Of a DNA stretch of 37,401 nucleotides, positions 1,121-14,163 are shown in pieces. Source of the DNA: Bacteroidota bacterium (lineage in GTDB: Bacteria > Bacteroidota > Bacteroidia > J057 > JADKCL01); contig JBJOPY010000186.1 in NCBI GenBank assembly GCA_046050405.1, forward strand, positions 1 to 37,401, read 5' to 3'. Position 1 is the stretch's first letter. Each line of letters starts with the position of its first letter. The notes under the pieces are model-generated. The model was not told the DNA's origin. It saw nothing but the letters and a program-made list of their open reading frames with translations, and did no database searches. Made by a program: the position numbers and the translations under genes.

Positions 1121-1522
1121 TCACGTTTCACCGGGGCCCGGCACCCGCCCTCCGGACCGCAGATACTCCGGTGTATATATAGGAGTTGGCGTTACGGGTA
1201 CCAATTTCAGCCCATACGCGGCTGCGAAGTCGTGGCCATACTCAATCAACTTGGCATGAATTTCTTCCTCGGTCATGCCAGCGAAGGGATCGTAAGGCTC
1301 GGGATTGAACTTGGGGTTTCTGGGAACGATGAAGGCGGAGAGCCTGATGTACAGCTCCAGCCATTGTACCGGATCCTTGATTTGATCCAGCTTGGAAGCG
1401 ATCCGGTCGATTCTGAGATGCATGGCCTCGGAAATCGCCTCCTGGACCGTGGCGGGGACGGCCCCCTTTGCACCTTTGGGCCTCCCTTTGGGGTTGCCGC
1501 TGGCTCCTTTTTGAAAGGGCAT
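1121..1522 (-). CDS. DUF5681-like small protein (133 aa)
   Basis: Internal start of ORF 1121..1987(-): MPFQKGASGNPKGRPKGAKG...SKLDQIKDPVQWLELYIRLSAF. The GNPxGRPKG N-terminal motif is what I recall for the DUF5681 family, which is often phage or mobile-element associated. It is a paralog of 1887..2255. Confidence 0.6.
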   Translation of the reverse strand: MPFQKGASGNPKGRPKGAKGAVPATVQEAISEAMHLRIDRIASKLDQIKDPVQWLELYIRLSAFIVPRNPKFNPEPYDPFAGMTEEEIHAKLIEYGHDFAAAYGLKLVPVTPTPIYTPEYLRSGGRVPGPGET

Positions 1523-1562
1523 AGTGGTTACAATTTGATTGTTTGCGAATAAAACATCCTTT

Positions 1563-1574
1563 TTGCAAAATAAA
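1563..1574 (-). promoter_or_regulatory. conserved AT-rich box TTTATTTTGCAA, putative Bacteroidota -7-like promoter element for 1121..1522
   Basis: Plus-strand ttgcaaaataaa is identical to the 12-mer at 2300..2311, and it lies 41 nt upstream of the ATG. It resembles the Bacteroidota TAnnTTTG element, but the spacing is one nt short of consensus. Confidence 0.4.
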
Positions 1575-1886
1575 CGATCTTTTTGCTCACGGGGTCGAGG
1601 ATACCTGCGCACCCTGCATTTTTGGCTGGTCTTCGCCGCCGCCACCCGCCGGCGCAGCCACGGCGTACGGGGGGCCGGCCCGGGACGCAGGGATTCCTGA
1701 TACCTCCCGGCAGGGCGCAGGAGATGGCACGGCGGTGTCCTGCCACGGCTGGCAAGGTTGCCGCCAACCCCTTGGCAAGGGCCGAACCCCGCCCCTCCCT
1801 GTGATGACCCCGCCCATCCGCCGCTTGGAGGCCGCTGGCCGGATGCTTCCCTGTGGCCGATGCCATGGACTCCCCTTGTGAAAGAT

Positions 1887-2255
1887 TCATCCCCCGTCTT
1901 GGCTCCTGGTGCCTCCCCCTCCTTCCGTGGATGCCGCTGAATCGATCGGGACAAATTCATAACCTTCCTTGAGAAGAACCTCCTCATATAATTTCCTTAA
2001 CTCTTCTTCTGTCATCTGAGCCACGCGGCTGGGTTGCTCCGGCTGGGGACTCTTGGAAAGGACGAACCCGGTAAGCTTATACATCAGCTCCAGGTATTTC
2101 ACGGGGTCTTTAATCTGGTCCAGCTTGGAAACGATCAGATGGCCCCGCTTTTGCAGCACCTCCGAGATCGTCTGCTTGACATACTGGGGTATCTGCCGGG
2201 TGTCGCCTTTCTGCTTGCCGTCGGGGTTGCCGCTGTATCCTTGGGAATAAGGCAT
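1887..2255 (-). CDS. DUF5681-like small protein (122 aa), paralog of 1121..1522
   Basis: MPYSQGYSGNPDGKQKGD...SKLDQIKDPVKYLELMYKLTGF...MTEEELRKL aligns along its length with the 133-aa paralog, at roughly 40-45% identity by eye. Confidence 0.6.
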   Translation of the reverse strand: MPYSQGYSGNPDGKQKGDTRQIPQYVKQTISEVLQKRGHLIVSKLDQIKDPVKYLELMYKLTGFVLSKSPQPEQPSRVAQMTEEELRKLYEEVLLKEGYEFVPIDSAASTEGGGGTRSQDGG

Positions 2256-6332: not shown

Positions 6333-6696
6333 GGGGGTGAATGGAATAGACGGGTTGTGTTGAGGTGGGTAAGCATGCAGCGCGTTGTGGGAGTAGCGCT
6401 TGAAAGCGAACCCTCGCAGATTATTTGGCAACACACAGTTCGCTCTCGCGGCCTAATTAGATTAGGAAGCTAGACGTCTCTCGGTACGGTATGCCTGCCC
6501 GCTGTACCTATGGGGCGCTCATCCAATGACAGGATCGGGACGCGACGCCCTTAAGCGTCCCTAAGAGACAAGGGATTCATCTCCGGCCATCGCCCTGCCC
6601 ATCGGACAGGCGGGAGAAACATCAAAGATTCGGCTAAGCATGTAGAAAGCCCATCGATCCCCTCTCCGGACCCGGGTTCGACTCCCGGCACCTCCA
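6333..6696 (+). ncRNA. ssrA: tmRNA (transfer-messenger RNA)
   Basis: The 5' GGGGGTG pairs with the 3' CACCTCC, including a G3:U pair, followed by discriminator A; CCA is not encoded. A T-arm ggacccGGGTTCGActcccgg is present. Blocks conserved in Bacteroidota tmRNA are present (GTAAGCATGCAGCGCGTTG and AAGCATGTAGAAAGC). The tag ORF ggc aac aca cag ttc gct ctc gcg gcc taa at 6427..6456 encodes GNTQFALAA. Confidence 0.93.
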
Positions 6697-6699
6697 CGC

Positions 6700-6741
6700 G
6701 GGGGAAGATTCTGAACCATCAGCGTCTTCCCCCCTTTTTTT
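6700..6741 (+). terminator. rho-independent terminator of ssrA
   Basis: A perfect 9-bp stem GGGGGAAGA (6700..6708) / TCTTCCCCC (6725..6733) with a 16-nt loop, followed by C and a T7 run (6735..6741). Confidence 0.8.
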
Positions 6742-6834
6742 GCCCCGCGACTTCCTGCCTGCTTCTGTCGCGCAGCTTCCGGCATCCTGCACGGCCTCAG
6801 GAAGGGTGCCTTGGAAAATGGAGGGGGATGCACC

Positions 6835-7134
6835 GACCGTTTCCCCACCTGGAAGCGAAGCTCGCCACCGGTGCGGCCCATCCCCCAGGTGCGGTGCGTC
6901 ATGCCGAAGCGCCTGCGGTTCATGAAAGCGGGTGCCCCGCAATCGTCCGGCAGACAATTGCGGGGCACCCGGGCAAACATTGCCGGCACACCGTCTTCGC
7001 AGGTGGCCACGAAGAACCCCCCGTCATGCGCCCCACGGCAGGGGGGATGGGAGGATGCTTTTCCCCTCCATCTGCTGCATCGGCCACATGGGATCCGCGA
7101 AATGAGCCGTCCACTCTTCCTGGAGGCCCATCAT
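6835..7134 (-). pseudogene. YbjN-like partner gene of cassette 1, frameshifted and 3'-truncated
   Basis: Starts 9 nt after the stop of 7144..9807: MMGLQEEWTAHFADPMWPMQQMEGKSIL, compared with intact MDIFEQVTAHFAERKWPMQKMEGENIL. A +1 shift near the C/G run at 7041..7046 moves it into the frame of ORF 6561..7010 (VATCEDGVPAMFARVPRNCLPDDCGAPAFMNRRRFGMTHRTWGMGRTGGELRFQVG). Similarity to the intact copy ends at about 6835, so roughly 45 C-terminal codons are missing. Confidence 0.75.
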
Positions 7135-7143
7135 CCCAGTCCG

Positions 7144-9807
7144 TTACAATTGTCCACTGATCGCCGCCCGCATTTCTGTTTCATACACGGATATTTCGAC
7201 TTTCGCGTCGTCTTGGTCCTTCGCGTCGTCTTGATCCTTCTTGGCGGCTGCGGCCTTCTTGTCGGCCTCGTCCTTCTTTTCGGCCTTGGCCTTCCATTTC
7301 TTCCACTTCGCGGGTGTGATGCTGGCAGCGTCCAGGAGGGCTTTCAGGGTGACATGTGCGTATGCCTGCGACTCTTTTTCCCCTGCTTCTCCTTTTGGGA
7401 TGTCGGTGATGACGATCGGGGCCGGGACGAACTCCGACCCGTTCCAGCTCGATTGGCCCAGCCGGTAAACTGCATCCGTGATCTCCTCCTTGCTGGCTTT
7501 CTCCGCCTGCTTGCTCTTGTGTGCCGAGGCGCTGGTTTCCAATTTCAGGTTCTCCGTGGAGAACCTTTCTGGCCGCTCCGACCTGGCGTTCTTGCCACTC
7601 CCTTTCTTCACCCATGTGTCGCGCTTCTCGGAGTCCCCGAGGCTGTTGGCGGATTGGCCAGGTTTCAAGGTCGTTTCTGTACTGCTCTTTACACGCTTTT
7701 TCTTCTCCATCCAGGTGAAGCGCTGGATGTCCAGGAATTCATCCTCTGTGAGTTCTGCAGGCGTCTCACGGTTGATGACTTCGTCCAGGTGACTGTAATA
7801 ATACTTGAAAATCCGGGTTTCCATGGTGCGATACCCTGGAGCCTTGGCTTCCCTCTGGTGGGTGACCGTTCCGCTGTCCGTCAGCATGCCTGCGATTTTT
7901 GTCAGCCGATTGGATGCTTCGTTCCTCCGCCAGCTCAATGCCGTGGTGCCCAGGGTGATCAGCCCTCCGATGGCCGCGAGGGCGATTCCGACCGGGGCAC
8001 CCACGCCCGAGAGCGTTAAGGCGCCGCCTGTAACGGCCAAGGCGCCGCTGACGGTCTTCAATGCGCCGCGCTCCATCTTGCGACCGTTGAGCATCTTCAT
8101 GGCCTTCATGGCCGGGCCGAACTCCTTGTCTATCGCATCCACCTCCTTCAATACCTTCTCCAGCCGCAGCATGTGGGTGAGCAAGTGAGACAATACCTCT
8201 GGATCTTGCGTATTCTTGATCAGGTCGGTGGCGGTGTTCACGGCACCGTTGACTCCTTTCCGGATATCAGACTGGGCCTTCTCTCCCTTCTTGATATCCT
8301 TGTTGGACGACCAGGCACGGAAGATCTGGACACCCCCCACGATCATGTCGATGCTGCCTGTGACGACTCCCAATGCAGCCGATGCGGTTCCCAGTGCCGA
8401 TGCTGTGGCGCCTGCAGTGGTGCCGGCGGCCTTCAGGATGGACGAGCCAAAATCAACCCCCGTCTTGCCCAGGGCGGTGGTTTGGGATCCGAGTTCCAGG
8501 GCGCCTTGAACCATTTCTCGGTTGGTTTTCCCATCCTTGGAGAAGAATTCAATGCCACTCTTGAGCAGGGAGACCATCCCTGAAACGACCGAAAGTTCTG
8601 AGGCCACCATGCCTGCGATTCCGGACTGGGCGACAGCGTTCTTGCCCTGGTTGTGAATGGTATCTATGGTCGAGGCAAAGCTCCAGCCCCCGGACGTCAT
8701 CGCGCCCAAGGAACTCAGCCCCTTGTAGGCAGCTTCCGTTTTTGCCAGGCCGCTCGCCTTTTCGTCTCTCAATTTATTGATGGAATCATAGACACCGAAG
8801 GCACTCGTGCCCACGCCTGCCACGCTGGACACCCCTCCCAGCTCGGGGGTGGTACTGCTCAGCGTCTTGGGTTTTCCATTCGCATCTTTTCCAGCATCCA
8901 GCTTGCCGACTGACCCGGATATTTTCCCTGGCATATCTATGATTGCCTTTACGAGCCCCTCACGGTTCGTTTCCCCGGCATCGGCCTTGACTGCGGTGTC
9001 CTCGCCTTCCTGCTTCGCCTTCCGGACACCCTTGACCAGCTGGTTGAAGTCGGGGTTTAAAACGGTTTTCCAGCTGCTGAGGTCATCGTAATACGCTTTT
9101 TGGCCCATTGCCCTGAAGGCGGCGGACTTTTCCTCGGGCTTGAGCGCCTTGAAGTCCGCCAGGATTTGTTTATTGCGCTCGCTCTTTGCCTTTTCAGCGA
9201 GCCAGCTCTCCACGGACGCAAGGGTGGCGTTCCGTTTGCCCTCATAGCCATTCAGGGCGTCCAGCAGCCTTTGTGCCCTTTGGGTCATCCTGGCCATGTA
9301 CGCATCGTCTTTTTCCTTGGAGCCTCTTTTGAGATCCCCGGTTTTCTGGCTGATGCGCTCCACGTCCACTACCGGAATGCTGGGTAGTTTTTGATGGACT
9401 TGCTCCATGATGGAAGCGTATTCCTTCCCTGGATCTGGCAAATTCTGGTTGGCAGCGGCCTTCTTCTTGCCTCTCAGCTGGGCAGTACCCGCTCCTCCGC
9501 CTCCTTGCCCCGCTTCCCGCTGCTTCCGCTGGGCGGCGGCGGCATTCTCGGCGGTGGCGATGCGCTGCAGCTGTGCAGCCGCCTTTGCCTGCGGGCTGTT
9601 GTTGGCTGCATCCTGCCAAGCGCGGAACTGCTGGACACGGGGGCTGTTGTTGGCCGCCTCCTGGAGCTTGTTCTGGGCGACGAGCCCGGGGCGTCCTGCG
9701 GGGAAGCTGGCCGATTTTTCGGAGGAGAGTCCCAGGTTTGACCCGCGATTTTGCGTGGAGACTTCAGCCTCCTGCTTCTGCTTTGGCTGTGGGGAGTGAG
9801 TTTTCAT
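7144..9807 (-). CDS. cassette 1 large protein (887 aa): Q/A-rich leader plus Gly/Ala/Ser-rich hydrophobic body; putative membrane-active effector, no DUF4157 module
   Basis: A full-length ORF homologous to 11046..14036 over the leader (aa 1-112, NNSPRVQQFRAWQDAANNSPQAKAAAQLQ) and the body (aa ~125-887). There is no N-terminal signal peptide. It has long G/A/S/T-rich hydrophobic stretches and a conserved C-terminal tail ...ETEMRAAISGQL. Confidence 0.7.
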   Translation of the reverse strand: MKTHSPQPKQKQEAEVSTQNRGSNLGLSSEKSASFPAGRPGLVAQNKLQEAANNSPRVQQFRAWQDAANNSPQAKAAAQLQRIATAENAAAAQRKQREAGQGGGGAGTAQLRGKKKAAANQNLPDPGKEYASIMEQVHQKLPSIPVVDVERISQKTGDLKRGSKEKDDAYMARMTQRAQRLLDALNGYEGKRNATLASVESWLAEKAKSERNKQILADFKALKPEEKSAAFRAMGQKAYYDDLSSWKTVLNPDFNQLVKGVRKAKQEGEDTAVKADAGETNREGLVKAIIDMPGKISGSVGKLDAGKDANGKPKTLSSTTPELGGVSSVAGVGTSAFGVYDSINKLRDEKASGLAKTEAAYKGLSSLGAMTSGGWSFASTIDTIHNQGKNAVAQSGIAGMVASELSVVSGMVSLLKSGIEFFSKDGKTNREMVQGALELGSQTTALGKTGVDFGSSILKAAGTTAGATASALGTASAALGVVTGSIDMIVGGVQIFRAWSSNKDIKKGEKAQSDIRKGVNGAVNTATDLIKNTQDPEVLSHLLTHMLRLEKVLKEVDAIDKEFGPAMKAMKMLNGRKMERGALKTVSGALAVTGGALTLSGVGAPVGIALAAIGGLITLGTTALSWRRNEASNRLTKIAGMLTDSGTVTHQREAKAPGYRTMETRIFKYYYSHLDEVINRETPAELTEDEFLDIQRFTWMEKKKRVKSSTETTLKPGQSANSLGDSEKRDTWVKKGSGKNARSERPERFSTENLKLETSASAHKSKQAEKASKEEITDAVYRLGQSSWNGSEFVPAPIVITDIPKGEAGEKESQAYAHVTLKALLDAASITPAKWKKWKAKAEKKDEADKKAAAAKKDQDDAKDQDDAKVEISVYETEMRAAISGQL
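7201..7236. repeat. in-frame 18-bp tandem duplication in the C-terminal tail of cassette 1 protein
   Basis: ttcgcgtcgtcttggtcc / ttcgcgtcgtcttgatcc encodes KDQDDA KDQDDA. It is absent from the cassette 2 protein. Confidence 0.8.
7930..8067 (-). other. 46-aa hydrophobic glycine-zipper-like segment (predicted helical hairpin) of cassette 1 protein
   Basis: GALKTVSGALAVTGGALTLSGVGAPVGIALAAIGGLITLGTTALSW (aa 581-626) has no charged residue after K584 and contains repeated small-xxx-small spacing. Confidence 0.6.
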
Positions 9808-9909
9808 TTTAGAGATGCATTTTTCCGGGCTTTGAGCCAGTTCGAAATATCCAAACGAATCGTTGAAGGAAAGATGGTGGAAACAATGCGCTGCCTTTCA
9901 CGATGCAAC

Positions 9910-9940
9910 GCACTCCATGTGAAAGACCGCCGTATCGCCA
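9910..9940 (-). promoter_or_regulatory. conserved upstream element shared by cassette 1 and 2 large genes
   Basis: The minus-strand core CGGTCTTTCAcatGGAGTGC (9910..9929) matches CGGTCTTTCAtccGGAGTGC at 14132..14151 in 17 of 20 positions. The two lie 103 and 96 nt upstream of their ATGs, in otherwise poorly alignable spacers. Confidence 0.4.
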
Positions 9941-10385
9941 CACCCTCCATTGCGGACAATTGGACATATCCGCATGGACTTGCTGGCGATGCAATCGCGT
10001 GCAATATAGCATGAAAATCGGAATCGTCCAAAAAATCTGAAGAATCCTTCCCTGCCATGAATCCATGTCGCAGGGCCTGACCTCCCGCCTTCGCAGCGAC
10101 GAAGGGAGGGGAATCGCTAAAGCTCCGTTCCCATGGCATCCCTGTGCCAGCTCTTGGGGAGTGCCATCCAAGGCCTGCCCGTGGCGGCGTCCATCACGCG
10201 GTTTTGCAGGGATCCACCGGGGAGGCAGCATTTTACCCAAGACATGGCCAGCCGGAGGCTTCAGCGATGAGGAAGCCCCGTCGTTTGCAAGGGGAACTAT
10301 GCGAGGCAGACACGGGCGTTCCATCACGCCTGAACGACGTCCATGAGCCGTTAGAAGCCCAGCTCACCGCACCGAAGCACCAGGT

Positions 10386-10586
10386 GATCCTTCGGTTTCC
10401 CGATTTCGGCCATCGTTTATCAGGGCAGGGGATTCAGGCTGGGGTGTTCCCAAGCATTCTGCACAGTTCAGCCCGTCACCCACCCTTTTCCATCCAGGGG
10501 CCGAACCAAGTCAGGGAAGGGATTCCACCCTGCCCCGGCCCGGAGCCGATCGCTCGGTCCCCGGCCGGGGCGGATGGCCGTCACCC
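10386..10586. repeat. ~200 bp conserved 3' flank of the YbjN-like gene; partner 14649..14851
   Basis: By-eye alignment runs from gatccttcggtttccc through cagcccgtcacccac...ggggccgaaccaag... to the stop codon. Similarity is lost further into the spacers. Confidence 0.7.
10533..10570 (-). terminator. GC-rich stem-loop just downstream of the intact YbjN-like gene (no U tract)
   Basis: The minus strand reads CCCCGGCC GGGGA CCGA GCGA TCGG CTCCG GGCCGGGG. This gives an outer 8-bp stem and an inner 4-bp stem capped by a GCGA tetraloop. It is conserved at 14797..14835. Confidence 0.35.
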
Positions 10587-11033
10587 CTATTCGGGGAAGA
10601 CGATCGCGAAGGCCTCCTCGTAGGTGGCGTCGTCGTTGATCACAGCGGTGAACCCGGGGAGGTACTTGTCCATCGTGAAGTTCGTGTACAGCGTCATGCG
10701 CTGGAAGAAGTCGCTGTCCGGCGTGAGCCCGCCCAGGTCGGCCCCCACCCGGAAGCGAATCTCGCCATCGGTGCGGTCCATCACCCAGGCGCCATGCGTC
10801 ATGCCGAAGTTCGCGCGGTTCATGAAGGCGGTGACCTCGTCGTAATAGTCCGGCGGACAATTGCGGGGTGCCCGGGCAAACATCACCAGCACATCGTCGT
10901 CGCAGGTGACCACGAAGGCCCATGTGCCATGCGTCCCATTGTAAGGGCAGGAGAGGATGTTCTCCCCCTCCATCTTCTGCATCGGCCACTTGCGCTCCGC
11001 GAAATGCGCCGTCACTTGTTCAAAGATATCCAT
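10587..11033 (-). CDS. YbjN-like protein (148 aa), intact partner of cassette 2
   Basis: MDIFEQVTAHFAERKWPMQKMEGENILSCPYNGTHGTWAFVVTCDDDVLVMFARAPRNCPPD...FMNRANFGMTHGAWVMDRTDGEIRFRVG... This pattern is what I recognise from the YbjN (putative sensory transduction regulator / T3SS-chaperone-like) family. It starts 12 nt after the stop of 11046..14036. It has no signal peptide and no TM segment. Confidence 0.7.
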   Translation of the reverse strand: MDIFEQVTAHFAERKWPMQKMEGENILSCPYNGTHGTWAFVVTCDDDVLVMFARAPRNCPPDYYDEVTAFMNRANFGMTHGAWVMDRTDGEIRFRVGADLGGLTPDSDFFQRMTLYTNFTMDKYLPGFTAVINDDATYEEAFAIVFPE

Positions 11034-11045
11034 TATTGTAGGGGG

Positions 11046-14036
11046 TTACAATTGATTGCTGATCGATTTACGCATTTCTGTTTCTTGATCGGCAGGGGTG
11101 GGCTTGAGGTCGGCCTTGGCCTTCCACGACTTCCATTTGGCAGGCGTGATGCTGGCGGCGCTGAGGAGGGATGTCAGGGTTATATGTGCGTATGCCTTGG
11201 CCTCTTCTCCTCCCCCTCCGAGGAGGACGAGCGGTGCAGGAACGAACTCTGTCCCGTTCCAGCTCGATGACCCCAATCTGTAAACCGCATCCGTGATCTC
11301 CTCCTTGCTGGCTTCTTCCGCCTGCTTGCTCTTGTGTGCCGAGGCGCTGGTCTCCAGTTTGAAATTCTCCCAAGACCAAGAGTCGGGCCGCTCGGATTTG
11401 ACAGCCTTGCCGCTTCCTTTCTTCACCCATGTGTTGCGCTTCTCGGTGTCCCCGAGGCTGCTGGCATCTTTGCCCGGTTGCAAAGTCGTTACCTTTTCTT
11501 TCGGCACGCGGTCTTTCTTTTCCTGCCAGTTGAAGCGCTGGATGTCCGTGAATTCATCCTCTGTCATGTCTGCAGGCGCCTCACGGTCGATGACCTGGTC
11601 CAGATGCTTGTAATAATACTTGTAGATCCGGTTTTCCATGGTGCGGAACCCGGGGGCTTCGGCCGCCCTTTGGTCTGTGACGGTTCCGCTGTCGGTCAGC
11701 ATGCCAGCGATTTTCGTGAGCCGGTTGGCCGCCTCGTTCCTGCGCCAGTTCACCGCCAGACCACCCAGTGAGATCAGCCCGGCAACGGCCGCAATGGCGA
11801 TCCCGACCGGGGCGCCCACGCCCGAGAGGGTGAGTGCGCTGCCGGTAACGGCCAAGGCACCGCTGACGGTTTTCAAGGCGCCGCGCTCCATCTTGCGACC
11901 GTTGACCATCTTCATGGCTTTCATGGCGGGGCCGAACTCATTCTCCACGGCTTTAATCTCTGCCAAGACCTTTCTCAGCCTCCTCATTTCCCTAATCAAG
12001 CTGGAATACGCCTTGGCGTTGCGTGAAACCTTCATCTCCTCGAGGGTCTGGATGAGGGCAGTGTTGATTCCTTGCACCATGGTCGCCTGTGCCGCCTCTC
12101 CTTTCTTGATGTCATTGTTAGAGAGCGCGGCGCGGACGATCTGAACCACGCCGATGACCATGTCGATGGTTCCTGTGATGACCCCCAGGGCTGCAGAGGC
12201 GGTCCCAAGGGCCGTAACTGTTGCACCTGTGGTGGTGCCTGCTGCACTGAGAATCGACTTGCCAAGATCAGCACCTGACTTGCCCAGGGAGGCAGCTTTG
12301 GATCCTATTTCCAAAGCACCCTCGGTCATTTCTCCCGAGGTTTTCCCGTCCTTGGAGAAATAATTATAGCCGGTCTCAAGCAGATCGAGTGTACCTGTCA
12401 CGGCCGTGAGCCCACTACTCACCGCGCCTGCGATCCCAGACTGGGCGACAGCGTTCTGGTCCTTCTCGAGCGGGTTCTTTATTTTGTCGATCGCCCCGGC
12501 AATGTCCCAGGCCCCGGACACCATTGATCCTGCGCTATCCACTCCCGATACGACTGCTTTTGCCTTATCGAACTTGCCAGCCTCTGGATCTCTAAAATCA
12601 TTGACAGCGCTGTAGATGCCGAAGGCTCCCGTTGCAAGATCCGCCCCGCCTTGGATGGCACCCAGGTTAGGATTCACATCAGCCAGGGTCTGGTCATTTC
12701 CCTTATCATCTTTCCCTCCATCCAGCTCACCCACTGCCTCAGTAATACTAGACGCTGCTTCAAAGACTCCGCTCGCCATTTCAGAACGGTTGCTCTCTCC
12801 GGCATCCGCTTCGACCGCCGCATCCGGGGCTACCTGGGTTGCCTGCCGGATACCCACGATCAGTTCGTTGAAGCTGGGGCTTAGGAAGGTTTTCCAAGTG
12901 CTGACGTCATCGTAATAGGCCTTTTGGCCCATCGTCCTGAAGGCCCGGGTCTTTTGGATGGGCGTCAAAGCCTTGAAATTGGCGAGGATTGTTTGATTGC
13001 GTTTGATGTTTCCTGCCTTTTCACCGAGCCAGCCCTCCACTGCTGCAATGGTGGCTGCCTTTTGGCTCGTATAGCCATTCAGGGCATCCAGAAGCTTTTG
13101 TGCCTCCCTGACCATTCTCGCCTTGAACGTAGCAGTCTTCTCAAAACGGCTCTCCGTGGTGTCGTCAGTCTTCTGGCCTATCCGTTCCCGGTCTTCTACC
13201 GGAATGCTGGGTAGTTTGCTGTTGATTTGATCCAGAATTGCCTGGTAACCCGCAGGCGGAGCAGTCAAATTCTGGATGTTCGCAATCTTCCTCTCGCCGG
13301 AAATAAGCTGGGCGACCTTGAGCTGGGTGGGGGCGGATGGGTTGGACAAGGAAGTGAAGGTTTTGTTTTGCAGGACATTGCCGCCCACACTGGCTGCCTC
13401 GGCACCCTTGATGTCCGCTTCCCGCTCCAGGCCTGCATCGTCATTGATCGGAACGGTCCCCTTCATCTGCGTGGTGGGCTGCACCCTTCCCTGCTTCTGC
13501 TGCACCACGTGCCATGCCTCGTGCCCCAGGTGCTTCTCCTGCCCGGGTGCGACGTGGATGTTCTCGCCCTGGGCGAAGGCATGGGCCTGGAGCTGCGCAG
13601 GCTCCGAGGAGTTGTAATGCACCTTCACATTGTCCATGGACATTCCGCTCATGTGTTCGATGCCGGCCTTCAGCTGCGTCGGCAGCCCGGTGTCCTTGTC
13701 CTTCAGCTGGGCGCTATCCGCTCCTCCGCCTTGCTCCATTTCCCGCTGCTTCCGCTGGACGGCGGCGGCGTTGGCCGCGGTGGCGACCCGCTGCAGCTGT
13801 GCTGCGGCCTTCACCTGCGGGCTGTTGTTGGCTGCCAGCTGTAATGCACGGAACTGCTGAACCTGGGGGCTGTTGTTGATGCCCTCCTGGAGCTTCTTGC
13901 GGGCGACGATCTCGGGACGGCCTGCGGAGAAGCTGGCCGATCTCTCGGAGGAGAGCCCCTCCATTGACGTGTGTTCACCCATGGAGCCTTCGGCATTCTG
14001 CTTCGGCTTCGGTTGTAGGGGGGTGTGATTTTCCAT
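11046..14036 (-). CDS. cassette 2 large protein (996 aa): leader plus DUF4157-like module plus hydrophobic body; putative polymorphic toxin / eCIS-type effector
   Basis: Start chosen at MENHTPLQPKPKQ (ATG 14036), by homology with the starts of the other two copies (MKTHSPQPKQKQ, METRKPLQPKLKQ). The track ORF extends to 14135. It contains GLPTQLKAGIEHMSGMSMDNVKVHYNSSEPAQLQAHAFAQGENIHVAPGQEKHLGHEAWHVVQQKQGRVQPT, and the body is homologous to 7144..9807. Confidence 0.75.
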   Translation of the reverse strand: MENHTPLQPKPKQNAEGSMGEHTSMEGLSSERSASFSAGRPEIVARKKLQEGINNSPQVQQFRALQLAANNSPQVKAAAQLQRVATAANAAAVQRKQREMEQGGGADSAQLKDKDTGLPTQLKAGIEHMSGMSMDNVKVHYNSSEPAQLQAHAFAQGENIHVAPGQEKHLGHEAWHVVQQKQGRVQPTTQMKGTVPINDDAGLEREADIKGAEAASVGGNVLQNKTFTSLSNPSAPTQLKVAQLISGERKIANIQNLTAPPAGYQAILDQINSKLPSIPVEDRERIGQKTDDTTESRFEKTATFKARMVREAQKLLDALNGYTSQKAATIAAVEGWLGEKAGNIKRNQTILANFKALTPIQKTRAFRTMGQKAYYDDVSTWKTFLSPSFNELIVGIRQATQVAPDAAVEADAGESNRSEMASGVFEAASSITEAVGELDGGKDDKGNDQTLADVNPNLGAIQGGADLATGAFGIYSAVNDFRDPEAGKFDKAKAVVSGVDSAGSMVSGAWDIAGAIDKIKNPLEKDQNAVAQSGIAGAVSSGLTAVTGTLDLLETGYNYFSKDGKTSGEMTEGALEIGSKAASLGKSGADLGKSILSAAGTTTGATVTALGTASAALGVITGTIDMVIGVVQIVRAALSNNDIKKGEAAQATMVQGINTALIQTLEEMKVSRNAKAYSSLIREMRRLRKVLAEIKAVENEFGPAMKAMKMVNGRKMERGALKTVSGALAVTGSALTLSGVGAPVGIAIAAVAGLISLGGLAVNWRRNEAANRLTKIAGMLTDSGTVTDQRAAEAPGFRTMENRIYKYYYKHLDQVIDREAPADMTEDEFTDIQRFNWQEKKDRVPKEKVTTLQPGKDASSLGDTEKRNTWVKKGSGKAVKSERPDSWSWENFKLETSASAHKSKQAEEASKEEITDAVYRLGSSSWNGTEFVPAPLVLLGGGGEEAKAYAHITLTSLLSAASITPAKWKSWKAKADLKPTPADQETEMRKSISNQL
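11745..11882 (-). other. 46-aa hydrophobic glycine-zipper-like segment of cassette 2 protein
   Basis: GALKTVSGALAVTGSALTLSGVGAPVGIAIAAVAGLISLGGLAVNW matches the cassette 1 segment at 37 of 46 positions by my count. Confidence 0.6.
13404..13688 (-). other. DUF4157-like module (present only in cassette 2 protein)
   Basis: The motif order LPxxLKxxxExxxGxxxxxVKVHxxxxAxxxxxxxxAxAFAxGxxIxxxxG...LxHExxHVVQQ matches my memory of the DUF4157 consensus. The HEAWH codons lie at 13509..13523. Confidence 0.7.
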
Positions 14037-14090
14037 GTGAGTAAGTGATGAATATTTAAACCTGGAAGTAAAAAGTGATAAACAGTTGAG

Positions 14091-14131: not shown

Positions 14132-14163
14132 GCACTCCGGATGAAAGACCGATGAATCACCGC
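14132..14163 (-). promoter_or_regulatory. conserved upstream element (partner of 9910..9940)
   Basis: See 9910..9940. It lies just upstream of the putative -7 box, so it would overlap the -33/operator region. Confidence 0.4.

Follow-up and report, generated by a model that had tools for sequence, protein, structure and literature searches.

Three leader-bearing genes beside a tmRNA gene

The window, i.e. the whole 37,401-nucleotide (37.4-kb) stretch of DNA analysed here, carries three neighbouring toxin-like genes on the minus strand (7144-9807, 11046-14036 and 15741-16301, hereafter copies 1, 2 and 3), all of which begin with a collinear N-terminal leader of ~115 amino acids. They are paralogous cassettes of one toxin family, lying in a tandem array bordered by a tmRNA gene (6333..6699, plus strand; ARAGORN; Rfam RF00023, 119.9 bits). 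Islands typically insert at such genes; a search of the array's flanks turned up neither an integrase nor an att-like repeat of the tmRNA 3' end. The flanks of the window consist of housekeeping genes (cbb3 oxidase, P-type ATPase, Usp, tmRNA), and the window contains neither a structural gene of a contractile injection system (CIS) nor an AAA+ gene.

Cassette 2 is the only one of the three that is fully intact. The copy 2 gene (11046..14036, minus strand) encodes 996 residues made up of the leader, a DUF4157 domain and a ~750-residue helical body. Its start was placed at the ATG at 14036 and not at the GTG at 14135 because identity to the related gene P0002, from another metagenome, begins about 40 nt upstream of 14036. 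The original prediction held that copy 2 has an extra DUF4157-like module before the body and this was borne out: an optional DUF4157/eCIS_core zincin-like module (13314..13703, minus strand; motif HEAWHVVQQ) is matched by Pfam PF13699 at residues 118-183 (E 1.1e-8, 35.6 bits, cut-off 22), and homology between copies 1 and 2 picks up again at 9390 <-> 13217 (BLASTN). AlphaFold2 (AF2) predicts an alpha/beta domain at residues 120-219, with block-mean pLDDT of 73-91 for residues 120-190 and 57-79 thereafter. A Foldseek search of the PDB with the leader plus DUF4157 model returned nothing at E <= 0.001, and three sequence queries against the PDB (leader profile, copy 2, and the YbjN-like protein described below) gave no matches.

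Copy 1 (7144..9807, minus strand, 887 residues) passes from the leader straight into the body, as had been proposed; its protein has no match in Pfam or NCBIfam, and neither copy 1 nor copy 3 has a DUF4157 domain in Pfam. The copy 1 body is 59-67% identical to its relatives P0003 and P0002. The body is helical with Gly-rich hydrophobic segments; an AF2 model computed from a 4-sequence alignment contains helices only, at a mean pLDDT of 42.6. Neither leader nor body is covered by any model in Pfam or NCBIfam.

In copy 3 the original prediction of a switch to an unrelated, AT-richer HTH segment also proved correct. A 332-nt low-GC foreign segment (15621..15952, minus strand) stands in place of ~2.3 kb of body and encodes, in frame with the leader, an XRE/MBF1-like HTH (Pfam HTH_3, PF01381; E 6.4e-10, 39.4 bits, cut-off 23), with the ORF stopping at 15741. 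Its GC content is 0.43-0.47 versus 0.62-0.65 in the leaders, and BLASTN detects no homology to cassettes 1 or 2. Membership of the aMBF1 family was ruled out, the NCBIfam match being sub-threshold (41.7 bits, cut-off 110), and a search for the origin of the HTH returned only weak matches to phage transcriptional regulators (41% identity). The window by itself shows just two payload types, body and HTH.

Each cassette also has a YbjN-like gene on the minus strand. That of cassette 2 (10587..11033, 148 residues; PF10722, 26.9 bits, cut-off 22) is intact and is a conserved partner of the body family: a similar gene of ~150 residues lies 3' of homologous bodies at three other loci (L001, L002 and L003), and a YbjN-like gene always comes after genes of the copy 1/2 body family, for which it may serve as an immunity protein or a chaperone. 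As a general partner of leader genes it was rejected, the other 79 loci having no homologues. The cassette 1 gene (6843..7134, 3' of copy 1) is decayed by DNA alignment, frameshifted and with its 3' part replaced; the copy at 6561-7010 gives no PF10722 match in Pfam, and repeat families D8-D10 run through this region at offsets of 3903, 3900 and 3902. A +2 insertion within a poly-G tract (DNA alignment, columns 83-84) breaks the cassette 3 gene (14852..15303), whose downstream part (14852-15256) still matches PF10722 at 25 bits (cut-off 22). Because these two YbjN-like genes are frameshifted or truncated, we call two of the three cassettes degraded, and the array in the window may have lost part of its function.

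The C-terminal tail was claimed to be kept in all three copies and to be a second constant handle. At the DNA level it is indeed kept: the last ~100 body codons persist in locus 3 (15314..15620, minus strand) at 88% nucleotide identity to copy 2 11345..11046, within a longer BLASTN match at 88% of 15620..14724 to copy 2 region 11345..10460. This stretch, within which there is a 66-residue ORF (15314..15514), lies beyond the copy 3 stop codon and is thus a remnant outside the copy 3 protein. The idea of a general handle was abandoned, since a comparison of 1,293 related sequences shows the tail on no other proteins than those of the body family found here (P0002, P0003, P0004).

A common leader with a sharp end

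The leaders span 9466..9807 in copy 1 (residues 1-114, ending AQLRGK), 13695..14036 in copy 2 (residues 1-114, ending AQLKDK) and 15954..16301 in copy 3 (residues 1-116, ending AQLHGK), all on the minus strand, as defined by alignments and BLASTN (block 9807..9466 <-> 14036..13695 for copies 1 and 2). They are clearly homologous: over 115 residues the other two proteins are 68-69% identical to copy 1, mean column identity is 83%, and nucleotide identity among the copies is 74-81%. The BLASTN homology blocks stop at 9464-9466, 13691-13695 and 15953-15955, so that the three breakpoints coincide to about 4 nt, right behind the codons for AQL-x-x-K (Ala-Gln-Leu-x-x-Lys). A single junction after this motif had been predicted, and the mapping places it at the nucleotide level. 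We propose that it corresponds to the domain boundary between leader and payload, the place at which in-frame rearrangements survive.

Several observations point to exchange at the module boundaries. Firstly, the DUF4157 module of copy 2 has on either side a 9-nt repeat, CGCCCAGCT, which encodes AQL and lies at 13705-13712 and 13306-13313, and DUF4157 was probably lost from cassette 1 via deletion between the two AQL-coding repeats. Secondly, P0002 and copy 2 share 90-97% identity over leader and DUF4157, but only about 75% from the second AQL triplet on. In cassette 3, a foreign HTH-bearing fragment has displaced most of the body. The leaders themselves bear similar marks: that of copy 3 is a mosaic, copy 2-like over its 5' two-thirds and copy 1-like over its 3' third (informative-site test with Fisher p 8e-4 at the best cut and p 0.007 by permutation), and leader dS (0.36-0.43) is about half of body dS (0.78), a sign that heads have been exchanged or homogenised. 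Of the recombining middle that had been proposed, the recombining junctions therefore stand (DUF4157 presence or absence, repeats, the P0002 identity break), while active recombination does not, two cassettes being degraded.

These data bear on a sceptical account in which the junction is nothing special: the array would be a decaying tandem triplication, copies 1 and 3 would be non-functional, and the breakpoints would coincide only because in-frame rearrangements at a domain boundary leave long ORFs. The broken YbjN-like genes, the missing ~2.3 kb of body and untranslated tail of copy 3, and a leader dN/dS between paralogues only moderately below 1 (0.38-0.56) are what such decay would leave. 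Yet the copy 1 ORF is intact and a contig of a different sample encodes the identical 887-residue protein, the identity break between strains at the second AQL site is independent, leader and body differ in dS, and the same boundary is in use across hundreds of unrelated proteins (see below). We consider this account improbable.

The leader is strongly hydrophilic (GRAVY -0.92 to -1.05), has 70-76% disorder-promoting residues and no Cys, and lacks a hydrophobic Sec/Tat-like segment. In the AF2 model of the copy 2 head (57-sequence alignment), residues 1-40 have low pLDDT, helices are predicted at 41-54, 57-70 and 73-102, and a low-confidence linker (103-119) lies at the junction, with the DUF4157 fold next. 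The leader thus comprises ~40 hydrophilic disordered residues followed by three short helices separated by Asn-Asn-Ser-Pro caps and a flexible linker that ends in hydrophobic-Gln-[Lys/Arg/Leu]-x-Lys. The expectation of a disordered leader holds for residues 1-40 and the linker but not for residues 41-102.

The leader family in other genomes

With the copy 1 leader as query, a word-indexed search recovered copy 3 alone, and the leader looked unique until a profile built from the three leaders was searched exhaustively against a library of 1.84 billion proteins. This search returned 667 representative proteins at E <= 1e-3, 77 of them at E <= 1e-10. Copies 3 and 2 score E 5.9e-61 and 2.7e-60, values that are circular since the profile was built from them; the 665 further matches are independent evidence against chance. 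The match is nearly always N-terminal (residues ~7-100), in proteins of 83-1859 residues, and many members come from Algoriphagus and other Bacteroidota. Metagenome contigs scanned for leaders of the window type yielded no more than two loci, L083 and L084, both distant and without a link to CIS genes, and viral contigs yielded none. By sequence, the leader is a large, uncatalogued and previously undescribed conserved family.

What follows the leader varies widely. HExxHxxQQ occurs about 150 residues in for 73 of the 152 top sequences, the others running straight into unrelated sequence, and eCIS_core is found by Pfam in 51 of 105 members; about half of leader proteins thus carry DUF4157 next. 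Other Pfam domains among the 105 are Ribonuclease, Endonuclea_NS_2, XOO_2897-deaminase, Peptidase_C2, GDPD and MLD, so that payloads include RNases, nucleases, a deaminase and proteases. The C-termini of 222 leader proteins fall into 176 clusters, and not into one fixed downstream domain; up to 11 of these clusters mix members with and without DUF4157, as judged by the HExxHxxQQ regular expression only. Paralogues at one locus diverge directly behind the junction motif, which across the family reads P-I-Q-[KR]-K (AQL-x-x-K here), its Gln being 93% conserved in 150 proteins.

We asked what this motif might be for. The leader and junction could chiefly form a processing unit, in which hydrophobic-Q-[KR]-K would be a putative cleavage site of the DUF4157 zincin, acting in cis or in trans, and the leader a pro-region or inhibitor removed to release or activate the toxin. 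The conserved Gln lies in a predicted flexible linker, and AQL-type motifs flank DUF4157 on both sides in copy 2 (VQRK...AQLKDK before, TQLKVAQL after), P0002 and P0004. Zhang et al. 2012 predicted the PVC-metallopeptidase, i.e. DUF4157, to be an autoproteolytic releasing peptidase (PMC3482391). [quoted passage not shown] We regard a chiefly processing role as unlikely; it could coexist with the loading role proposed below.

Of the 82 genomic contexts of leader genes examined, at least 10 have CIS genes (CIS_TMP, Pvc16_N, Baseplate_J, DUF4280, conserved AAA+) directly beside the leader gene, and 72 (about 88%) have no CIS genes within 10 kb. One context holds CIS_TMP and AAA with a tandem row of four leader genes behind them (L004), another Baseplate_J, DUF4280 and Pvc16_N (L008), and a third Pvc16_N (L064); at L086/L087 and L088 leader genes lie directly downstream of CIS_TMP, with AAA also present in L088. 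An AAA+ protein of ~450 residues, 42-48% identical across phyla, is encoded within 10 kb of a leader gene in 7 of 79 genome loci.

A probable role in loading eCIS cargo

Because the leader sits on many different toxins and is often encoded beside injection machines, we infer that it probably constitutes the N-terminal cargo-loading region of toxins delivered by an extracellular contractile injection system (eCIS), a particle resembling a phage tail. This organism would then have an eCIS. A packaging signal had been suggested in the original prediction, and homology and context (modularity of the family, CIS neighbours, AlgoCIS-like architecture) support it. A cognate AAA+ ATPase, encoded with particle genes elsewhere in the genome, would recognise the leader and feed the unfolded cargo protein into the tube lumen, by analogy with AlgoCIS Cgo1 and Cgo2. 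Everything behind the leader linker would be exchangeable: an optional DUF4157 zincin-like module, by the same analogy not needed for loading, then any of many toxin domains. Counted against the loading role are the lack of CIS genes in the window and in the 72 contexts, the predicted helices at residues 41-102, the degraded look of two cassettes, and the published view that loading sequences are unconserved between systems.

The leader might instead direct proteins to another export route, such as a Bacteroidota-type T6SS or other non-CIS pathway. T9SS signals are C-terminal, and the leader has no segment suited to Sec/Tat. The window has no eCIS genes and DUF4157 is occasionally reported in T6SS effectors (cited in PMC11297309), but the neighbours in other genomes are eCIS hallmarks (CIS tape measure, Pvc16_N terminator, CDC48-like AAA+) and not T6SS ClpV/TssBC. 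This route appears very improbable.

A bolder extension of the loading role is that the family is a portable, sequence-defined tag co-evolving with one clade of eCIS AAA+ (Bacteroidota, Cyanobacteria, Proteobacteria). The invariant terminal motif would then be a dedicated functional site, either the point at which the DUF4157 zincin cleaves, in cis or in trans, to shed the leader, or a hand-over point for the ATPase, and the short, conserved coding repeats at the junctions (GCCCAGCT here) would double as microhomology for cassette exchange. We hold this full combination to be possible although rather unlikely. If true, it would run counter to the prevailing notion that loading signals of eCIS lack a conserved sequence, and orphan cargo genes would be recognisable anywhere in a genome.

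Cgo1 and Cgo2 have a disordered N-terminal domain and DUF4157 in common and differ in their C-terminal domain (PMC8894135); loading of AlgoCIS cargo requires the N-terminal domain and the AAA+ protein Alg15, DUF4157 being dispensable (10.64898/2026.05.27.728243). The N-terminal domain of Cgo1 and Cgo2 (UniProt A3HTB0, A3HTA9) is the one DUF4157-type loading sequence for which experiments exist, and the present genes resemble these two in architecture. In both cases at least two cargo genes have a similar hydrophilic N-terminus, DUF4157 and differing C-terminal domains, DUF4157 is optional (for loading in AlgoCIS, as a module in the leader family), and leader genes in other genomes, like cgo1 and cgo2, have tape-measure and AAA+ genes next to them. 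In contrast to AlgoCIS, the window genes are orphans, the 37 kb around them holding no CIS genes, residues 41-102 of their leader are predicted to form helices, and they carry a different payload, the helical body with its Gly-rich hydrophobic segments and YbjN-like partner gene. Of known eCIS-associated toxins (EATs), 88% lie within ten genes of an eCIS operon (PMC11297309), a proximity not seen in the window. Copy 2 has the NTD-DUF4157-CTD cargo layout, with HExxHxxQ and a hydrophilic, disorder-prone N-terminal region.

DUF4157 is an eCIS core marker (PMC8213781), and the PVC-type polymorphic toxins and EATs (Zhang et al. 2012; Geller 2021; Danov 2024) are defined by it together with N-terminal biochemical properties, no conserved signal sequence having been detected in those studies. 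The leader family shares with them a constant N-terminus recombined with many unrelated C-terminal toxin domains, the polymorphic-toxin pattern of Zhang et al. 2012, as well as the DUF4157 HExxHxxQ signature, hydrophilicity and many members without obvious immunity genes. The constant element here, however, is a sequence-conserved leader of ~100 residues upstream of DUF4157, which persists without DUF4157. Photorhabdus PVC payloads (Pdp1, Pnf) and Serratia Afp18 also have a transferable hydrophilic N-terminal region that brings them into the tube lumen, assisted by a Pvc15-type AAA+, but their signals are described as about 20-50 residues long, without DUF4157 or a reported conserved sequence. 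Most likely, the window genes are a further member of a known eCIS cargo type, the conserved leader family itself being undescribed.

At present, eCIS cargo is recognised mainly via proximity to particle genes or DUF4157, and loading signals are described as non-conserved. A profile of ~100 residues with a sharp end would allow simple cataloguing of cargo, including cargo without DUF4157 and far from CIS loci; the defined end would be a natural fusion point for engineered payloads, and natural pairs with and without DUF4157 offer a way to ask what this domain does. The window displays exchange of heads and payloads at nucleotide resolution. In this it recalls the orphan-module arrays of CDI/Rhs systems, with tandem related toxin cassettes, partner genes, recombination between copies and some degraded members; CDI/Rhs orphans, however, are C-terminal toxin-immunity modules without the N-terminal trafficking part, whereas in the window the N-terminal leader stays on every copy, and loss or replacement affects the payload.

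Leader and junction in the three cassettes

Three large minus-strand genes, here called copies 1, 2 and 3 (7144-9807, 887 aa; 11046-14036, 996 aa when counted from an ATG at 14036; 15741-16301, 186 aa), have collinear hydrophilic leaders at their start, with 68-69% protein identity to the leader of copy 1 and 74-81% nucleotide identity. BLASTN blocks covering the three leaders end at 9464-9466, 13691-13695 and 15953-15955, and similarity is lost in all three copies within ~4 nt, immediately past the codons for Ala-Gln-Leu-x-x-Lys. Since these ends coincide so closely and the leaders are collinear, the leader coordinates and description in the original prediction are correct, and the common breakpoint that it implied, termed the junction here, holds at the nucleotide level.

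The leaders have a GRAVY of ~-1.0, 70-76% disorder-promoting residues and no Cys, and their net charge over residues 6-21, counted from the sequences, is ~0 to +1. In an AF2 model based on a 57-sequence alignment, residues 1-40 are disordered and are followed by helices 41-54, 57-70 and 73-102 with NNSP in between, the block-mean pLDDT being 84-91 over residues 41-80 and falling to 73 by 91-100. A low-confidence linker, residues 103-119, holds the junction, and the alpha/beta domain of DUF4157 (Pfam eCIS_core) lies beyond it. This position, between the leader helices and the DUF4157 domain, makes the junction a predicted inter-domain linker.

Past the junction, copy 1 continues straight into a ~770-aa body, while copy 2 carries a ~133-aa module between junction and body. 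This module, which had been described as DUF4157-like, indeed matches Pfam eCIS_core (E 1.1e-8) and contains HEAWHVVQQ. Homology between copies 1 and 2 restarts at 9390 and 13217, respectively (BLASTN). The same 9 nt, CGCCCAGCT, coding for Ala-Gln-Leu, are found on both sides of the copy 2 module (13705-13712 and 13306-13313), and the window has 7 sites of the 8-mer GCCCAGCT versus 2.3 expected, 4 of them at the junctions. Because the post-junction residues of copy 1 (RGKKKAAANQNL) align with the residues of copy 2 past its second AQL (SGERKIANIQNL), copy 1 looks like the product of a DUF4157 deletion between the two AQL repeats.

The leader family and its link to contractile injection systems

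A word-indexed search with the leader gave no matches outside the window; when an HMM of the three leaders was searched exhaustively, 667 representative proteins were retrieved at E <= 1e-3, 77 of them at E <= 1e-10. The match is nearly always at residues ~7-100 of host proteins of 83-1859 aa, and no model in Pfam or NCBIfam covers it. The family consensus, MNTHADKTQENKSQSV..SQ.QSGGESTFQFVDNRPEAVAQRKLQEMANNSPQVSQLRAFQDMANNSPQAKQAAQLQAMADN.SAQQQQPIQKK, closes with a sharply conserved end motif, P(56%)-I(64%)-Q(93%)-K/R(83%)-K(70%), directly past which same-locus paralogues diverge. AQL-x-x-K is the local form of this motif, of which the window leaders have two (VQRK... and AQLxxK). About half of the top matches go on to ENNTGLPDNLK... 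and HExxHxxQQ, i.e. DUF4157, and the rest run straight into unrelated sequence. Where the leader or DUF4157 is followed by 100 or more residues (222 leader proteins), the C-termini fall into 176 distinct clusters. Up to 11 clusters, with DUF4157 called by the HExxHxxQQ regex only, mix DUF4157-plus and DUF4157-minus members, paralleling copy 1 versus copy 2. Toxin-type payloads recognised by Pfam include Ribonuclease, Endonuclea_NS_2, XOO_2897 deaminase, a calpain-type protease, GDPD and MLD.

A genome scan for the leader returned 79 loci, mostly in Bacteroidota (Algoriphagus, Flavobacteriaceae, Pedobacter, Hymenobacter and Marivirga) but also in Cyanobacteria, Gammaproteobacteria, Nitrosomonas and Desulfobacter. 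The commonest neighbour is a ~450-aa AAA+ ATPase (7 loci, 42-48% identity across phyla); one AAA+ clade is represented in L004, L008, L040, L048 and L088. In locus L008, Baseplate_J, DUF4280, Pvc16_N and AAA genes lie upstream of the leader gene, and a Pvc16_N gene is near that of L064. In an Algibacter MAG (L004, 2893-10825), a CIS_TMP tape measure gene and an AAA gene precede a tandem run of four leader genes, each with a C-terminus of its own and only one with DUF4157. Two of three metagenomic long-contig contexts place the leader gene just downstream of CIS_TMP, one of these two with AAA. Also beside CIS_TMP, L086 (10001-10798) has a 78-aa leader-only ORF and, after it, a distinct 164-aa eCIS_core ORF; leader and DUF4157 appear either split into two genes or separated by a frameshift.

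Altogether, genes of contractile injection systems (CIS) lie within 10 kb of leader genes in at least 10 of 82 contexts. As loci for extracellular CIS (eCIS) are present in ~2% of genomes (PMC8213781), chance would give far fewer, and we infer an enrichment far above chance. Most family members are orphans, as in the window, where no contractile-injection genes were found in 37.4 kb.

The architecture matches, in its domain layout, that of AlgoCIS cargo. The disordered NTD and DUF4157 are common to Cgo1 (UniProt A3HTB0) and Cgo2 (A3HTA9), which are distinguished by their CTDs (PMC8894135), and loading into AlgoCIS requires the NTD and the AAA+ protein Alg15, DUF4157 being dispensable (bioRxiv 10.64898/2026.05.27.728243). 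DUF4157, under the name PVC-metallopeptidase, was described as the domain that stays constant at the N-terminus of PVC-type polymorphic toxins (PMC3482391), and subsequent work established it as a core marker of eCIS (PMC8213781). The three genes are best explained as a tandem array, partly in decay, of a single toxin family with eCIS cargo leaders. According to the literature, no conserved eCIS loading sequence is detected (PMC11297309; bioRxiv 10.64898/2026.05.27.728243); for this clade, the present family would run counter to that view. What is added here is the size, conservation and defined end motif of an uncurated leader family, together with head/payload exchange visible at base level.

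Body, tail and evidence of exchange at the junctions

The body family is rare. Searched against the database, the body had only three relatives, each carrying DUF4157: copy 2 itself, P0002 (67% identity, with the leader of the window) and P0004 (33% identity, with another leader). A ~150-aa small gene follows P0002, P0004 and copy 2 on the independent contig L001; its YbjN match is weak or faint in L001 and in L002, the contig of P0002, and in L003, that of P0004, none is on record and the likeness is by sequence. Predictions give a helical body that includes Gly-rich hydrophobic stretches (e.g. copy 1 residues 595-626), its AF2 model being unusable (pLDDT 42.6). P0004 and its upstream neighbour, a 1203-aa protein with a GHSLGG lipase motif, have a common N-terminal leader unlike that of the window and including the motif ...LQNI..VQAKLTIGEPNDKYEQEADRVAAQVV (L003 175-3786 and 3959-7060), which may represent a second, unrelated leader family of similar use.

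Most of the body is missing from copy 3. Directly after AQLHGKN comes a 332-nt segment (15621-15952) in which BLASTN found no similarity to the other two cassettes. The predicted switch to an AT-richer HTH segment was recovered: GC is 0.47 versus 0.62-0.65 in the leaders, and an XRE-type HTH (Pfam HTH_3, 39.4 bits) is in frame with the leader up to the stop at 15741. This HTH (15741-15952, minus strand) resembles MBF1/XRE regulators, with a sub-threshold aMBF1 match in NCBIfam, and an ATG (MQEYKP...) lies within a few nucleotides of the start of the foreign segment. Since a Tox-HTH class is listed among PVC-type toxins (Zhang et al. 2012, PMC3482391), the leader-HTH fusion may be genuine cargo. 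Homology of locus 3 to cassette 2 restarts at 15620 (BLASTN, 88% identity) and comprises the last ~100 body codons, the downstream gene and beyond. With the copy 3 ORF stopping at 15741 and body homology present only from 15620, what locus 3 keeps of the conserved tail is a remnant that is not translated.

In a set of 1,293 related sequences, the C-terminal tail is confined to body-family proteins; it is part of the body payload and not a second universal handle. Of the two constant handles first proposed, homology and genomic context support the leader as a packaging signal; the tail is not supported as a handle.

There is evidence of exchange at the junctions. Firstly, P0002 (L002 293-3412, from another metagenome) has 90-97% nucleotide identity to copy 2 from ~40 nt before the ATG through leader and DUF4157 (window 13300-14076), falling to ~75% between 13330 and 13300, where the second AQL triplet lies; the P0002 body is in parts nearer copy 1. 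Secondly, synonymous divergence among the paralogues is 0.36-0.43 in the leaders, about half that of the bodies (0.78). Thirdly, the leader of copy 3 is a mosaic that resembles copy 2 towards the 5' end and copy 1 towards the 3' end (permutation p 0.007).

State of the array and its surroundings

A ~150-aa YbjN-family gene (PF10722) follows each of the three bodies, and only the middle one is intact. The one after copy 1 (6843-7134, minus strand) is frameshifted, with other sequence in place of its 3' part. In the one after locus 3 (14852-15303, minus strand), a poly-G run carries a +2 insertion; this could also be a homopolymer assembly error or phase variation. Near its C-terminus, copy 1 has a Lys/Asp/Ala-rich low-complexity insertion, missing from copy 2, which includes an 18-nt tandem repeat (7195-7230, minus strand). 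A small ORF (9804-10139, minus strand), called as an 84-aa gene on L001, overlaps the copy 1 start; Pfam gave no match for it, and copies 2 and 3 have no counterpart of it upstream.

The array directly adjoins a tmRNA gene (6333-6699, plus strand; tag peptide GNTQFALAA), a type of gene at which islands classically insert, but neither an integrase nor an att repeat was found. The other genes of the window are housekeeping genes: an HD-7TM receptor, DUF1573, Usp, a P-type ATPase, cbb3 oxidase with Fix genes, an ECF sigma factor and a DEAD helicase. On the side opposite the array, ~4.3 kb upstream of the tmRNA gene, a 288-aa ORF (1121-1987, minus strand) matches DUF5681.
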